A stretch of DNA of 64,000 bases from Clostridiales bacterium GWD2_32_19 (lineage in GTDB: Bacteria; Bacillota; Clostridia; Lachnospirales; UBA12420), in the NCBI GenBank assembly GCA_001795385.1, contig MGOU01000020.1, positions 27,539-91,538 of the forward strand. The letters run 5' to 3'. The position numbers were made by a program, and so were the translations under genes. Each line of letters begins with the position of its first letter. The first letter of the stretch is position 1. The notes under the pieces are model-generated. The model worked only from the letters and a program-made list of their open reading frames with translations, had not been told where the DNA came from and made no database searches. Shown one piece after another: positions 1,575 through 53,980 of the stretch.

Positions 1575-1742
1575 TTAATGAATCTCCCCGTGGCAAGCCG
1601 ACGGGGTATCATGTTGTCATTGCGAGCGTTTTTTGCGAAGCAATCTCATCTTTCAAAAACGAGATTGCTTCGTCGAAAGAACCTCCTCGCAATGACAAGA
1701 ACGCGGCAAGCCGACGGGGAATTAAACCCAAGGAGATTAAAT
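1575..1742. repeat. Nested-palindrome MITE-like intergenic repeat, copy 1
   Basis: Near-identical to 37963-38129. Core is gtcattgcgag...gaagcaatctc-loop-gagattgcttc...ctcgcaatgac. Flanked by the direct repeat ggcaagccgacgggg and terminal ttaatgaatctcc / ggagattaaat inverted ends. ORFs called across it (1560-1769, 1568-1873) are artefacts. Confidence 0.8.
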
Positions 1743-1796
1743 GTCGAGCTTCATCTATTGGTTTTTTAGTACCAATTTCTATAATAATATTTAAAA

Positions 1797-3023
1797 TTAT
1801 AATTCAGGCTTTGTTACTGGCTCTCCAGCCTCTACTAGAACTTTGTCACCTATTAAGAAAAACCCTTGAATAAATAGTAGAACACCTGTTCCTATTAGTA
1901 GCCATTCTATTTTTACAATATCAGCCAAAGGTCCAAATATAATCATCCCTAATGGCATAATAGAACTTGATATCATACCCATAACACCAAATACTCTACC
2001 CAGAAAATCAGGCTCGACTTTTTCCTGTAGCAAAACAGTTGATGGTGTATTAAAAAGAGGTATGGTAAGCCCTGATACACCCATGATGATGGCATATAAC
2101 CAAAAATTAGAAATCAATCCAAATGCAACTGTACATACTCCTATAGCTAGGCACGACAGGGTCATAGTATGAATCTTGTTTTTGAAACCTCCCCATGAAG
2201 CCATGACGATACCACCCATCATCATCCCAATTGAAAATGCGACTTCAATTGCCGTAAGACGCCAAACATCGTTGCCAAAACTACGTGTCACCTGTAACGG
2301 TGTCAAGAATGCAACAGGTGTAATTAGGAAAAAGAAAAACGCGCAGAATAAGAAAAACTTTTTAACATAGCTATGATTTTTGATATATTCTAGTCCCATA
2401 CGCATATCACTAAAGTAACTCGTTTCTTGCTTTTTCAATGCTTTTGCATGTACTGGCACTTTCAAAAAGAAAAGTAATGTTAAAACCCCTATTACTGCTG
2501 TAACTACATCTATGAAAAATATTGTCTCAATCGTAGCAATAGTAAGTAATGCACCACTAAGCATAGGTGATACTAACATAATTAGTGCTTGTACACTTCC
2601 ATTTATTCCGCTCACTTTAGTAAGTTTGTCCTCGGGTACAATCTGCGGAAGAAATGCCCCTACTGCTGGCATCTGAATTCCTCCTCCAAGTGCTCGTATA
2701 GCAGATATCAAAAAGAGTAGCCAAAGAGGATCATATCCCATTAGAAATAGTATAGCTAAAATAAGCGTTGCTGCTGCTATCATAGTATCAGACATAATAA
2801 TGAGCATTTTTCGATTATAGCGATCAGCCCATACCCCTGCAAACGGAGAAATAAAAAACATTGGCAAAAAACCACAAATAGCCGATATAGTCATCATTAC
2901 ACCAGACTGTGTTTCTAGTGTAATATACCACATAATCGCATACTGAACCAAAGATGATCCAAATAGTGATATAGTCTGGCTAGTCAAAAATAGTATTACA
3001 TTCTTTCTCCAGTTTTTATTCAT
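1797..3023 (-). CDS. MFS transporter (macrolide-efflux/DHA3-like)
   Basis: 408-aa polytopic membrane ORF. N-terminus MNKNWRKNVILFLTSQTISLFGSSLVQYAIMWY is typical of the family. Confidence 0.85.
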   Translation of the reverse strand: MNKNWRKNVILFLTSQTISLFGSSLVQYAIMWYITLETQSGVMMTISAICGFLPMFFISPFAGVWADRYNRKMLIIMSDTMIAAATLILAILFLMGYDPLWLLFLISAIRALGGGIQMPAVGAFLPQIVPEDKLTKVSGINGSVQALIMLVSPMLSGALLTIATIETIFFIDVVTAVIGVLTLLFFLKVPVHAKALKKQETSYFSDMRMGLEYIKNHSYVKKFFLFCAFFFFLITPVAFLTPLQVTRSFGNDVWRLTAIEVAFSIGMMMGGIVMASWGGFKNKIHTMTLSCLAIGVCTVAFGLISNFWLYAIIMGVSGLTIPLFNTPSTVLLQEKVEPDFLGRVFGVMGMISSSIMPLGMIIFGPLADIVKIEWLLIGTGVLLFIQGFFLIGDKVLVEAGEPVTKPEL

Positions 3024-3169
3024 TTTTCAAATATTCCTCCAATGCAAATATGTTTTCTATTTCAAATTATACCATACCTCATAAAATATGACAACAAGAA
3101 TACTCCAGTATTAACATAAAAATAAGCGCTAATGCGCTATTATTGGTTTCCCAATTCTCCTAGTTCATT

Positions 3170-3970
3170 TTAGAATTCTTTTATTTGTGTGTACTCTTTT
3201 TGAGCTTTTTCCATTGAATATTTCATATTATTTTGCTTATATATTGAATCAGCTGTTGCATCTACTGTAATCCATCTTTTTTCATCTTCTAGATATATTT
3301 GATTCCAAGCATGATATGTATCACCTGTTAATGTGCTGTATCCTTTTATTACTTTACTTTCTATTCCTTGACTTCTTAACATTGATGCAAGTATTACTGA
3401 GTAGTCATAGCATATACCTTTCTTTTCCGCTTCAACTTTGTTTACATCTGGTATGTAGTTTGTACTTAAAGTTTCGATTTTATTATAATCATATTTATAA
3501 TTTTCAACTACATATTTGTATATTGCATTTACTTTTTCTTTTTCTGTTGTCATTCCTTTTGTTAATTCACTTGCTACTATTACTACTTTATCTTCTACTT
3601 TCCAGTTGATTATTTTGTTTGATGTTAAGAAAACTTTTTCTGTAATTACCATTTTTAGCTCTAAAGAAGTTTCATATACTTTAGTGTAGTTTGTCCCAAA
3701 TACTGCTTGAAAAATTTTTAATGAGTAATTTCCGTTTCCTAATTGTAATGGATATCTTTCTTCAATTTTCATCATGTCATACATATATTTGCTTCCGTCT
3801 TTTTCTATTATTACTTTCATGCTTGCGCTTATTTCTTCACTGTATTTTACTGTTACTATTCCGTTTTCTTGATCTATGCTTGTACTTATTATTTCTTCTG
3901 CTAATGCTTTTGTTGTTAAGATTGTTATTGCTATTACTAAGATTGATGTTATTATCAATAGCTTTTTCAT
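3170..3970 (-). CDS. Secreted transglutaminase-like (Cys-His-Asp core) protein
   Basis: Signal peptide. GICYDYSVILASMLRS ... YHAWNQIYL ... WITVDAT matches the transglutaminase-like cysteine protease core. Paralog of 62077-62877. Confidence 0.75.
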   Translation of the reverse strand: MKKLLIITSILVIAITILTTKALAEEIISTSIDQENGIVTVKYSEEISASMKVIIEKDGSKYMYDMMKIEERYPLQLGNGNYSLKIFQAVFGTNYTKVYETSLELKMVITEKVFLTSNKIINWKVEDKVVIVASELTKGMTTEKEKVNAIYKYVVENYKYDYNKIETLSTNYIPDVNKVEAEKKGICYDYSVILASMLRSQGIESKVIKGYSTLTGDTYHAWNQIYLEDEKRWITVDATADSIYKQNNMKYSMEKAQKEYTQIKEF

Positions 3971-4164
3971 AAAAATCCCCTCTTCCTGATTGCTTGCCTC
4001 TTGTTTAGAGAAGACCCTTAGCTAATCAGTTGAGGGGGAAGAGAGGTTTATGTTGCCTTCTCTTCTAATTTATTATATTTTACCACTTTATGTCATATAT
4101 GTCAATGCTTCCTACAGAAAAAGTGTAGATTAATGTAATATTAGGCTGTATTTGGTAATCAAAT

Positions 4165-4204
4165 GGAAAAACAAAGGCCTATCTCCTTAAAGATAGGCCT
4201 TTGT
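4165..4204 (-). terminator. Rho-independent terminator downstream of the SLH gene
   Basis: Perfect 14-bp stem acaaaggcctatct/agataggcctttgt, followed by a T-run on the minus strand. Confidence 0.7.
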
Positions 4205-4240
4205 CTGTTTTGCTTGTAATTTGAAAGTTTTTATTATCAT

Positions 4241-4403
4241 TTAATGAACCTCCCCGCAACAAGCTGACGGGGTATCATGTTGTCATTGCGAGGAACGAAG
4301 CAATCTCTCTTTTGTCTTTTAAAGAACGGGATTGCTTCGTTCCTCGCAATGACAAATTTAGCACGCAGCAGAGCTGCGGGGAATTGACCCTGAGAGATTA
4401 ATA
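4241..4403. repeat. Nested-palindrome MITE-like repeat, copy 2 (diverged)
   Basis: Same architecture and orientation as 1575-1742: ttaatgaacctccccg...gtcattgcgag...gaagcaatctc...gggattgcttc...ctcgcaatgac...gagagattaat. The ORF at 4237-4431 is an artefact. Confidence 0.75.
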
Positions 4404-52800: not shown

Positions 52801-53296
52801 TCCTTGCCTTGATAGCTGAAAGATGTGCAACTGCTGCTAAATCCATAACTTCTTGAACTGAACTTGATGCAAGAAGAGCAAAACCAGTTTGCTTTGCAGC
52901 CATAACATCTGAATGATCTCCAAATATAGATAATGCATGACCTGCAAGAGCTCTTGCAGTTACATGAAATACTCCAGGTAATAATTCACCTGCGATTTTA
53001 TACATATTAGGCAACATGAGTAGTAACCCCTGTGATGCTGTAAAAGTAGTTGTAAGTGATCCACCTTGAAGTGAACCATGAACAGCCCCCGCAGCGCCTG
53101 CTTCTGATTGCATCTCTGCAACTAATACTTCCTCACCAAAAATGTTTTTCTTCCCTTGTGATGACCATTCATCAACCAATTCTGCCATCGTTGATGATGG
53201 TGTTATTGGATATATAGCTGCTACTTCTGTAAACGCGTATGCCACATAGGCCGCAGCTGTATTACCATCCATAGTCTTTATAACTTTCTTAGACAT
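49763..53296 (-). CDS. nifJ: Pyruvate:ferredoxin (flavodoxin) oxidoreductase
   Basis: 1177 aa. Two 4Fe-4S motifs ([25 protein letters not shown]). TPP-binding [10 protein letters not shown]. Confidence 0.97.
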
Positions 53297-53461
53297 TTAA
53301 AAATCCCCCTTTGAAGTACATTTGAAAATAAAATTGAAAATTAAAAGTATTACCATAAAACTTTCAATTTTACATCTTCTATTTTAAATTTATATATTCA
53401 TTATATATTTATTTTCTAAATTTTACAAGAAAATTTTATAAAATGTTCTTAAAATATATAT

Positions 53462-53499
53462 AAAATAACAACCTAAGATTAATCTTAGGTTGTTATTTT
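53462..53499 (-). terminator. Perfect palindrome terminator of the small acidic ORF
   Basis: aaaataacaacctaagatt/aatcttaggttgttatttt. Confidence 0.6.
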
Positions 53500-53536
53500 A
53501 TATATATGATATTATGTTTTTGCTAATAACTATATG

Positions 53537-53776
53537 TTAAATATTTGGCTCATCATCAGGGATTATCTCATCTTCTACATCTAAATTATACTCCTGCTTT
53601 TCTTGCTTAACTTCATTTGGGTACCGTCCTTTCATTCTCCAACCATTTCTATAAGCTTCTAAACCTAGTTCATTTATTAATTTATTTTGTTCTTTATAAA
53701 ACTCATCATTTTTTTCTAATATTTCTTTTACCTGTACTAAAGGATCTTTCGAGTCTGGTCCATCCCCAAACATCAT
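53537..53776 (-). CDS. Small acidic hypothetical protein (79 aa)
   Basis: GGGAGG RBS. MMFGDGPDSKD... The N-terminus and RBS region are paralogous to 54199-54411. Confidence 0.55.
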   Translation of the reverse strand: MMFGDGPDSKDPLVQVKEILEKNDEFYKEQNKLINELGLEAYRNGWRMKGRYPNEVKQEKQEYNLDVEDEIIPDDEPNI

Positions 53777-53799
53777 ATTTAAACCTCCCTACAATAATA

Positions 53800-53875
53800 G
53801 GTAGTGTAAAATATTTATATTACTAAATACTACACTATATCTTTTTATTCAATATATTTTATCAGTATTATCTTC
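53800..53875 (-). promoter_or_regulatory. Shared leader/promoter cassette, copy upstream of the small acidic ORF
   Basis: Same cassette as 14004-14080 and 33995-34071. Lies 23 nt from the ATG. Confidence 0.55.
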
Positions 53876-53980
53876 TCTCTCCCTTCATTGTGACATCCTA
53901 AGACTTGGTTTGTGTATTGTGCAAACCTAGACATAGGGGTCCTCTAGGAGGGTGTACGAAGCAATCTCTCTTTTATTTCT
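53876..53980. repeat. MITE-like repeat, variant subfamily, truncated
   Basis: cattgtgacatcctaagacttggtttgtgtattgtgcaaacctag...ggagggtgtacgaagcaatctc matches the left part of 14081-14250, at the same position relative to the cassette. Confidence 0.6.

Follow-up and report, generated by a model that had tools for sequence, protein, structure and literature searches.

We analysed five nested-palindrome repeats in a 64,000-nucleotide (nt) stretch of contig MGOU01000020.1 (the window), which comes from an uncultured, AT-rich Clostridiales bacterium sampled in aquifer-sediment metagenomes. Its pgk, helicase and plsX proteins have identical counterparts in a metagenome-assembled genome labelled 'Clostridiales bacterium'. 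The results lead to the conclusion, which we hold with a probability of about three in four, that the five copies combine two known kinds of small repeat: pairs of repetitive extragenic palindrome (REP) hairpins, and the ends of a mini-transposon of the IS200/IS605 type of insertion sequence (IS), the latter in copies 1, 2 and 4. These three copies are likely to be non-autonomous elements of the palindrome-associated transposable element (PATE) type. A first-pass annotation had described all five as one mobile family resembling miniature inverted-repeat transposable elements (MITEs). The repeats are indeed structured, multi-copy and non-coding, and copies 1, 2 and 4 derive from a mobile element, but they do not form a single MITE family. 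What had been taken for two subfamilies is a shared core, a REP dimer found across phyla, and a separate set of arms, which are IS200/IS605 ends.

All five copies are present where the annotation had placed them, at 1575-1742, 4241-4403, 14081-14250, 37963-38129 and 53876-53980, and their motifs exceed the counts in 100 dinucleotide-preserving shuffles of the window. The motif GTCATTGCGA (one mismatch allowed) matched eight times against a shuffle mean of 1.7, GAAGCAATCTC nine times against 0.9, and GGCAAGCCGACGGGG (three mismatches allowed) five times against 0.1. Every copy is intergenic and all share one orientation, as first described. The minus strand carries nearly all genes, and the GC skew of the plus strand runs from -0.13 to -0.33 across the whole window. 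A search with a profile built from six related elements found, within the window, exactly three copies with arms, one core without them at 14.1 kb and no arms standing alone. Copy 1 folds with a z score of about -7 on both strands, and copy 2 is about 72% identical to each of copies 1 and 4. The statement that the copies encode no transposase was likewise borne out, as tblastn with IS200 TnpA detected no IS200-type transposase gene across the window. The refined bounds of the arm-bearing copies, TTAAT included, are 1577-1740, 4243-4401 and 37964-38127, and their parts are as follows.

1577..1735, minus strand: PATE copy 1, consisting of left end, REP dimer and right end finishing ..GGGGAGATTCATT; 97.5% identical to copy 4 over 159 nt.
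1736..1740, minus strand: TTAAT just 5' of the copy 1 left end, a putative target and left cleavage site that may lie outside the element.
1586..1606, minus strand: copy 1 right-end hairpin CCCCG-T-CGG-CTTG-CC(A/G)-CGGGG with the T bulged; folds as DNA, with compensatory variants in copy 2 and in L377 (below).
1702..1716, minus strand: copy 1 left-end hairpin CG-T-CGG-CTTG-CCG-CG, after GGGTTTAATTCCC; folds, with stems that covary among elements.
1615..1697, unstranded: copy 1 inverted dimer of TGTC-tagged REP-type hairpins, the 'nested palindrome' core and cargo.
4243..4396, minus strand: PATE copy 2, with TTAAT at 4397-4401 and REP dimer at 4281-4354.
4169..4206, minus strand: intrinsic-terminator-like hairpin downstream of copy 2, context outside the element.
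37964..38122, minus strand: PATE copy 4, with TTAAT at 38123-38127 and REP dimer at 38002-38084; between divergent genes.

Both ends of these elements carry a hairpin. By DNA folding, the right end forms a 5 + 3-bp stem that bulges at a T and is closed by a CTTG loop, and the left end a 5-6-bp stem with the same loop. In copies 1, 2 and 4 the two hairpins lie on the same strand in direct orientation, and the profiles of the two ends hit each other in the window search. The GGCAAGCCGACGGGG motifs had been read as flanking direct repeats; they are instead these two subterminal hairpins, presumably bound by a transposase, in direct orientation as in IS608, and not duplications. Similarly, the 'ends' TTAATGAATCTCC and GGAGATTAA correspond to the right-end terminus (..TTCATT) and to the start of the left end plus the conserved flanking TNAAT. 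Among related elements the left-end stem covaries while the CTTG loop stays fixed (CGCGG/CCGCG, CGGGG/CCCCG, CGCCG/CGGCG, CGCAGC/GCTGCG), and in the right end CGG/CCG changes to CCG/CGG or CAG/TTG with the bulged T kept. The right-end terminus is TTCATT, with the variants TTTATT, TCAAT and CCATT. Of 11 related elements, 10 have TNAAT directly 5' of their left end, and the right flanks are unrelated.

The origin of these arms is indicated by elements that have the same ends and a transposase gene. A genome scan with the 17-mer GGCAAGCCGACGGGGWAT returned at least 99 stretches, where, by our own arithmetic, chance alone would give about 140 matches in the whole genome collection; among the matches listed, 100 have enough upstream sequence, and 65 of these have the complementary CCCCGY half needed to complete the hairpin. 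At several of the loci listed, the hairpin is followed by an opposite-strand open reading frame (ORF) ending ...LWGGEFWSDGYF.STVG. In a Candidatus Moraniibacteriota metagenome-assembled genome (MAG; L201) a 154-aa ORF matches Pfam Y1_Tnp with E = 2.7e-36. Read in the sense of the transposase, this element runs from CCTTTAAAGGGTTAATTCCC-CGCGGCTTGCCGCG, directly after TTAAT, through tnpA to GATA-CCCCGTCGGCTTGCCGCGGGG-AGGTTCATT, where it ends. A second full-length element with the architecture of L201 lies in a Peribacteria MAG (L196), and a third, unannotated one on plasmid pB of Chroococcidiopsis sp. CCNUC1 (L377), where the ORF was identified as a transposase by reading alone and has an apparent in-frame stop. 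The first-pass annotation had proposed a search for a full-length autonomous relative, and these three elements are full-length relatives. TnpA homologues adjoin the hairpin in six more loci, mostly of Patescibacteria.

On the minus strand, the sequences of copies 1, 2 and 4 have the ends of L201-type elements with a different interior. Based on this homology, we conclude that their arms correspond to the two ends, left and right, of an element of the IS200/IS605 type. A trace of the transposase remains in the lineage itself. In a sister species (helicase 82% identical), a contig end (L381 1-140; European Nucleotide Archive ERZ27254730 k141_319116) carries the last 27 TnpA codons (..DYVKSQGTEKEYKRLHR..), with the YVKSQ motif, followed by the mini-hairpin GAGCGGAGCGA and the right end GATACCCCGCAGTCTTTGCTGCGGGGTAGTTCATT. 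About 205 nt separate this tnpA fragment and right end from the orthologous helicase gene downstream, and the L381 hairpin is similar to the one at the left end of window copy 2. For the arms, an origin from a ribozyme or a CRISPR repeat was also considered and was dropped after transposase genes had been seen beside the same hairpins.

Members of the IS200/IS605 family have no inverted termini, cause no target duplication, insert 3' of a tetra- or pentanucleotide and carry a hairpin at each end (PMC7290912); short derivatives that consist of the ends only are known as PATEs (PMC7290912; PMC3119063). Target-site duplications, which the annotation had suggested looking for, are absent at the arm-bearing copies and are not expected for this family; no direct repeat was found at the flanks of eight small and three full-length elements. 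This bears on the reading of the repeats as classical MITEs, with inverted repeats for a DDE transposase, target duplications and two subfamilies of one element. The whole element does fold as one long hairpin, the copies are short, non-coding and intergenic, and the extreme ends are partly complementary, as a MITE would have it: the outermost 9-13 nt, TTAATCTCC versus GGAGATTCATTAA, pair in the predicted fold. We nevertheless regard a classical MITE as very improbable. The three arm-bearing copies and their relatives have no duplication, the repeated GGCAAGCCGACGGGG is direct and not inverted, and the same ends flank Y1 and not DDE transposase genes. Furthermore, what the supposed subfamilies have in common is a REP dimer, which is found by itself in hundreds of unrelated contigs.

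Three observations indicate that the small element moved as one piece: copies 1 and 4 are near-identical at unrelated loci with both arm-cargo junctions included, a 96% identical copy with unrelated flanks lies in Clostridiales MAG UBA12072 (L205), and independent assemblies stop inside copies 1 and 2 or collapse both hairpins with an NN gap. A diverged PATE copy was found in the same MAG (L182). About 100 nt from it, at 5881-6475, the L182 locus has a group II intron recognised by the Rfam models D1-D4 and D5-D6. In a Pseudomonadota MAG (L184) the same IS arms enclose a REP dimer of the TCT/CCT type. These observations have to be set against the possibility that the arms are full-length IS200-type copies which decayed in place, for instance by a REP dimer replacing the transposase gene, and never formed a small mobile unit. 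In-place decay would fit the lack of a transposase gene in the window, the failure to find an empty site and the age of copy 2, which has diverged to 72% identity. However, we consider it quite unlikely, since copies 1 and 4 match over their full length and through both junctions, and identical junctions are not expected from independent events. The copy in another genome context (L205), and the Pseudomonadota locus with its same architecture and covariant REP type, likewise argue against decay in place and for movement of the small element.

No empty site, orthologous or polymorphic, was found for copies 1, 2 or 4. A metagenome scan with the major facilitator superfamily gene located between copies 1 and 2 gave relatives that were at most 77% identical, had no synteny and contained no elements. 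Contigs of the same species either have the element or end inside it, and in the sister species synteny upstream of obg stops short of the copy 4 site. One apparent empty site, a 110-nt 'deletion' in L384, was rejected as an NN scaffold gap between the two hairpins.

The parent mechanism of PATEs is the 'peel and paste' of single-stranded DNA known from IS608 and ISDra2, and by analogy copies 1, 2 and 4 were probably moved in trans as single-stranded DNA. A TnpA (Y1/HUH) dimer encoded elsewhere in the genome would bind the two CTTG-loop hairpins when the minus strand is single-stranded at a replication fork, and would cut behind TNAAT on the left side and behind TTCATT on the right side. The element would be released as a single-stranded circle that could re-enter 3' of another TNAAT without a target duplication, and the REP dimer would travel as cargo. 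The elements may still be active today. The strand is consistent with such a route. The substrate of the IS200/IS605 family is the lagging-strand template (PMC6006769), and in all three arm-bearing copies the transposase-sense strand is the G-rich, gene-rich minus strand. From GC skew and gene strand together, the minus strand has the sequence of the leading strand and therefore, as a parental strand, would be the lagging-strand template. Thus the three top strands lie on the predicted lagging-strand template, as expected for the family, though three is a number too small for a statistical test.

The core shared by all five copies is an inverted dimer of REP-type hairpins. The unit is about 26-33 nt long and reads (C/T)GTC-ATnnn-GA-GCGnAGC-GA-nnnAT-Cyn, with AT-rich variants in the window; its parts are the (C/T)GTC tag, a 5-bp stem starting with AT, a tandem G.A, a mini-hairpin GC-GNA-GC, the returning half of the stem and a tail of 3 nt. 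Since each unit is itself a hairpin, two inverted units resemble an inner hairpin enclosed by an outer stem. In viral contigs, 113 stretches contain the nested pattern GTCATTGCGA..GAAGCAATC..GATTGCTTC, mostly in GC-rich contexts. Among these contigs we distinguished 72 dimers of 60-120 nt, in which GTC is preceded by C in 79% and by T in 19%, with G on the other side in 86%; no duplication is seen at 69 of the 72. An unbiased scan of viral contigs, with GTCAT and GAGCGNAGCGAAG fixed and the stems left free, yielded 201 distinct arms, with four main types (TGC 129, TCT 31, CCT 25, GCT 3). The stem covaries within the arm (ATTGC/GCAAT, ATTCT/AGAAT, ATCCT/AGGAT, ATGCT/AGCAT) and continues with GA/GA and GC/GC. 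In all four types the unconstrained 3' partner proved complementary, so that each arm is itself a hairpin.

Of the 185 viral-contig arms of the three main types, 100 have a candidate inverted partner within about 130 nt, and singlets occur as well. Where both arms carry GCGNAGC, the N is identical in only 12 of 24 dimers, so this base is more easily explained as part of a loop in each arm than as pairing across the arms. Plasmid matches to the core come from Novosphingobium, Methylosinus and Methylobacterium. The window has four complete dimers with the TGTC tag at both ends and spacers of 13-19 nt. Their unit loops are T-rich and 3-7 nt long (GTTTTTT, GAA, GAAA) and the tail is CTC, and GC-rich relatives have CGNAG loops and a CCA tail. 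As a side observation, many REP dimers of the viral-contig loci (L004-L116, and those from L280 on) have a start codon 15-25 nt downstream; in these phage-like contigs they stand just before the ribosome-binding site, between co-directional genes. At L078 three REP dimers form a 156-nt tandem array.

Going by its text description, we assign these units to the CGTC-tagged REP superfamily of Di Nocera, De Gregorio and Rocco 2013 (PMC3733652), which includes Neisseria dRS3 and Rickettsia RPE-4/RPE-6. The available part of that survey describes a CGTC tag with TGTC and CCTC variants, 8-9-bp stems starting with AT, 4-5-nt loops, a CCA-like tail and mostly inverted dimers with spacers. It lists chiefly Alphaproteobacteria as hosts, plus Chlorobi, Bacteroidetes, Spirochaetes and Thermotogae, and mentions atypical loops in the last of these. 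According to the same sections, CGTC REPs seem to have no transposase dedicated to them, and no Y1 transposase gene is flanked by CGTC units. The core studied here is similar in its (C/T)GTC tag, a stem starting with A-T/T-A, a short purine-rich loop and a 3-nt tail (CCA among the GC-rich relatives), in being mostly an inverted dimer with a short spacer and no duplication, and in a distribution that is strongest in Alphaproteobacteria and scattered over other phyla. In contrast to the survey as far as it is available, the host belongs to the Clostridiales, whose phylum is unlisted there, the loops and tails are AT-rich (GTTTTTT, GAAA; CTC), and three of the five dimers sit between IS200-type ends.

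Several points weigh against our conclusion. The window units depart from the CGTC norm, as described in the accessible text (PMC3733652), in their T-rich loop and in a CTC instead of a CCA tail, and the survey, in the same text, saw no association between CGTC REPs and transposase genes. The arm-bearing copies have no empty site, and their termini and TNAAT target are predicted solely from conservation. The source organism yielded no intact transposase gene, the lineage's only one being the contig-end fragment of the sister species. The partly complementary outermost ends, TTAATCTCC and GGAGATTCATTAA, are untypical of IS608. Finally, the strand argument consists of three copies and the assumption that the transposase-sense strand is the active one.

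A different account would give the repeats a host function as an RNA or DNA structure, such as a 3'-end stabiliser, a terminator or a protein-binding site, with spread by duplication or recombination only. REP elements have been proposed to act in termination and mRNA stability, according to the available part of the survey (PMC3733652), and homologous phage-contig loci retain the hairpin stems while the loop diverges. Copy 2 lies between the stop codon of the ORF at 4412..4753 (minus strand) and the terminator of that gene, hence inside the 3' untranslated region and upstream of the terminator, and it is therefore probably transcribed. However, none of the copies scores as an intrinsic terminator. 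At gathering thresholds Rfam has no family for the elements in the window or in 16 related loci, and with E up to 10 on short stretches only generic hairpin matches far below threshold appear. A full-text literature search with the motif strings retrieved unrelated primers only. Moreover, the arms are demonstrably transposon ends. We therefore hold a purely host-functional origin to be unlikely; a function would be compatible with a mobile origin, and hence this account competes mainly for the arm-less copies 3 and 5.

Copies 3 and 5 represent one 170-nt block nested in another element, which we call the cassette MITE. The relevant features are these.

14081..14250, minus strand: copy 3 block, 170 nt, without IS ends, made of 8 nt, the REP dimer (14088-14221) and 29 nt.
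14099..14160, unstranded: 62-nt segment in place of the loop of one REP unit in copy 3; also at 53894-53956 in copy 5.
53876..53980, minus strand: copy 5, the copy 3 block with the same cassette junction, diverged and truncated on its distal side.
14004..14263, minus strand: cassette MITE, long form, 260 nt, upstream of pgk; the 90-nt element plus the copy 3 block, with the 8-bp repeat CAAAAATA at 13996-14003 and 14264-14271.
33995..34084, minus strand: cassette MITE, short form, 90 nt, upstream of plsX; inverted ends GATAGTGTCAAA and GGTAGTGTAAAA (reverse complement).
53800..53875, minus strand: third cassette MITE copy, right part, upstream of a 79-aa ORF at 53537..53776 (minus strand) and a pyruvate:ferredoxin oxidoreductase gene.

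The sequence ...ATTATCTTCC followed by TTTTGACACTATCT is unbroken at 34071/34072, and 170 nt intervene at 14081-14250. The first-pass annotation had taken this pair as a filled and an empty site and as evidence for the mobility of copy 3. As sequence the comparison is correct; what it compares are the 260-nt and the 90-nt copies of the cassette MITE. An alignment of the three upstream regions places copies 3 and 5 at one junction with the cassette, ..GTCrCAATGA(C)AGGGAGrGrGAAGATAATAC.., so that the two did not insert independently. The long and short forms thus speak for a single old nested insertion or a precise loss and not for mobility of copy 3 on its own: either the block entered the cassette once and was then propagated or duplicated with the MITE, or it was lost precisely from the plsX copy. 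A 27-nt stretch of the 62-nt segment has no exact match in viral contigs.

The cassette itself has 12-nt inverted ends matching at 10 of 12 positions. On either side of the plsX copy, at 33987-33994 and 34085-34092, lies the 8-bp direct repeat AAACAAAA, and in both the 260-nt and the 90-nt copies the inverted ends are intact and the direct repeats match at 8 of 8 positions. Of the third copy, which is truncated, the right end and the junction with the block remain; a candidate left end at 54253-54264 was rejected because it falls within coding sequence and has the wrong flank. In the sister species (plsX 89% identical) the collinear intergenic region lacks the 90-nt cassette and is an orthologous empty site. 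The cassette holds TTGAAT-17-TATTTA pointing to the gene and ends exactly 23 nt before the ATG in all three copies (pgk, plsX and the 79-aa ORF), and from its sequence it looks like a promoter-bearing MITE. No relatives of the 90-nt cassette were found in plasmids or in the related-genome loci examined.

The sister pgk locus was considered as a further empty site and is better explained as a deletion between two 14-nt repeats. In the window two 14-nt near-repeats on the minus strand, ATGCCAAAGATAAC (14378-14391, at the end of the nicotinamide mononucleotide transporter ORF) and ATGGCAAAAATGAC (13967-13980, at the current pgk start), bracket a spacer of about 400 nt. The sister species has a hybrid pgk start, ATGCCAAAGATGAC, and lacks the whole spacer, which a more distant relative retains. 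The sister spacer was probably lost by deletion between these repeats, replacing the first pgk codons. Separately, phage-contig REP dimers of the GTCATCCTGA type (L276 3916-4010, L278, L279) have flanks, CCCCTCCCTGT and AAATTTGA, that resemble the copy 3 flanks CCCCTCCCT.. and ..AAATTTGAGG (14080-14230); this likeness may be due to chance or to a shared larger unit.

Comparison with known systems indicates that PATEs and CGTC-type REPs are both known kinds of repeat, and that the family is ordinary and the combination unusual. Like the PATEs of Haloquadratum (PMC3119063) and Halanaerobium (PMC7290912), copies 1, 2 and 4 are short, have only the two hairpin-bearing IS200/IS605 ends with direct hairpins, show no target duplication and a motif beside the left end, lack a transposase gene and lie on one strand. 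They are unlike those PATEs in that the interior is a complete inverted REP dimer and not just leftover IS sequence, and in that the outermost end nucleotides are partly complementary. In the literature we found no description of an IS200-type PATE that encloses a REP dimer in a Clostridiales host.

REPIN-RAYT systems, as Nunvar et al. in 2010 and Bertels and Rainey in 2011 are said to have described them, combine GTAG-type REP doublets with a domesticated Y1 transposase; a summary is given in PMC6006769. The core shares with them two inverted REP hairpins that can fold apart or as one long hairpin, and a link to Y1/HUH enzymes. It differs in its tag, which is (C/T)GTC and not GTAG, and in that the Y1 link runs through the flanking IS200 ends only. 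To our knowledge, there is no RAYT gene for (C/T)GTC-type REPs. In the window and in 113 core-bearing viral loci, tblastn with IS200 TnpA detected no Y1 homologue. Classical bacterial MITEs with terminal inverted repeats and target-site duplications (TIR/TSD MITEs) include Correia/NEMIS and RUP. The 90-nt cassette is similar to these in its 12-nt inverted ends, 8-bp direct repeats and orthologous empty site, whereas the nested-palindrome family has no duplication and no DDE-type ends.

The IS hairpin occurs beside REP sequences in more than one host. It lies next to the REP apex GAGCGnAGCGA in an element of the sister species and in several Patescibacteria elements, so that this hairpin lineage, which is itself present across many phyla, adjoins REP dimers or their apex in three settings: the Clostridiales lineage, the Pseudomonadota MAG and Patescibacteria. 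This suggests that IS200-type elements may be able to carry such REP hairpins between genomes. Most REP dimers elsewhere are armless, and IS200-borne transport is therefore at best an occasional route. A viral scan for a REP unit joined to the right end gave only chance matches in coding sequence. A general scheme, in which CGTC-type REP dimers ride between IS200/IS605 mini-element ends and are carried between phyla by Y1 TnpA in trans, we regard as tentative and rather doubtful.

Other repeats were met in the course of this work. At least 12 copies of an element end with the same hairpin, ..CTTAACGTAAGGAAT..TATATTCGCTCGCTAA-CCCCGCGGCAAGCCGACGGGG-AATGCACTCGCTATCCGTTTCA and divergent beyond, occur in the Nitrospiraceae MAG CAVRZG01 (L119, L126, L134, L141, L143, L152, L155, L168, L193, L199, L206, L212), and the end is also present in L176; the CAVRZG01 repeats are a different element family using the same hairpin. 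In Patescibacteria several distinct small repeat classes embed the same hairpin, CCCCGC-GGCAAGCC-GACGGGG, one with a second hairpin CTCACCGCAAGCGGTGAG, one within a terminator-like stem and one beside GAGCGAAGCGA. The loci concerned are the following.

L122, L129, L158, L190, L192, L203: Patescibacteria repeat loci.
L128, L140, L200: Patescibacteria repeat loci.
L139, L163, L175, L188, L214: Patescibacteria repeat loci.

Within the window, the sole Rfam match is a c-di-GMP-I-GGC riboswitch aptamer at 62890-62973 on the minus strand (RF03167, 60.7 bits, E = 7.5e-12). A 51-nt repeat lies at 25699-25749 and at 53977-54027, where it abuts the truncated copy 5. A 50-nt repeat, GGGGTTAGGGGTTCTGAG.., lies at 25946-25995 and 58043-58092, with tandem arrays nearby (13-nt units at 25764-25854 and 18-nt units at 58088-58159). 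The 61-nt perfect AT-rich palindrome at 11613-11673, after the second gap gene, coincides with an indel relative to the 99.5% identical contig L003 and has the appearance of a terminator acting in both directions. The final 105 nt of the pyruvate:ferredoxin oxidoreductase gene recur 1.8 kb away with 97% identity (47914-48018 and 49762-49866), and the duplicate is probably what remains of a gene fragment.

For the organism itself, the PATE copies explain why its assemblies break or collapse at these positions, and they give a caution that the short ORFs created by such repeats should not be called. Precise definitions of the ends are now available for a lineage of IS200 elements with a wide occurrence in Patescibacteria, Cyanobacteria and others. 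Small elements are nested in three layers within this window, with a REP dimer in a PATE and a REP block in a TIR/TSD MITE, and the promoter-like MITE placed 23 nt before three start codons offers a natural example of small repeats that may rewire expression. Finally, REP hairpins between IS200/IS605 ends in Clostridiales provide a testable candidate for how the CGTC REP superfamily, which has no transposase of its own, could move.

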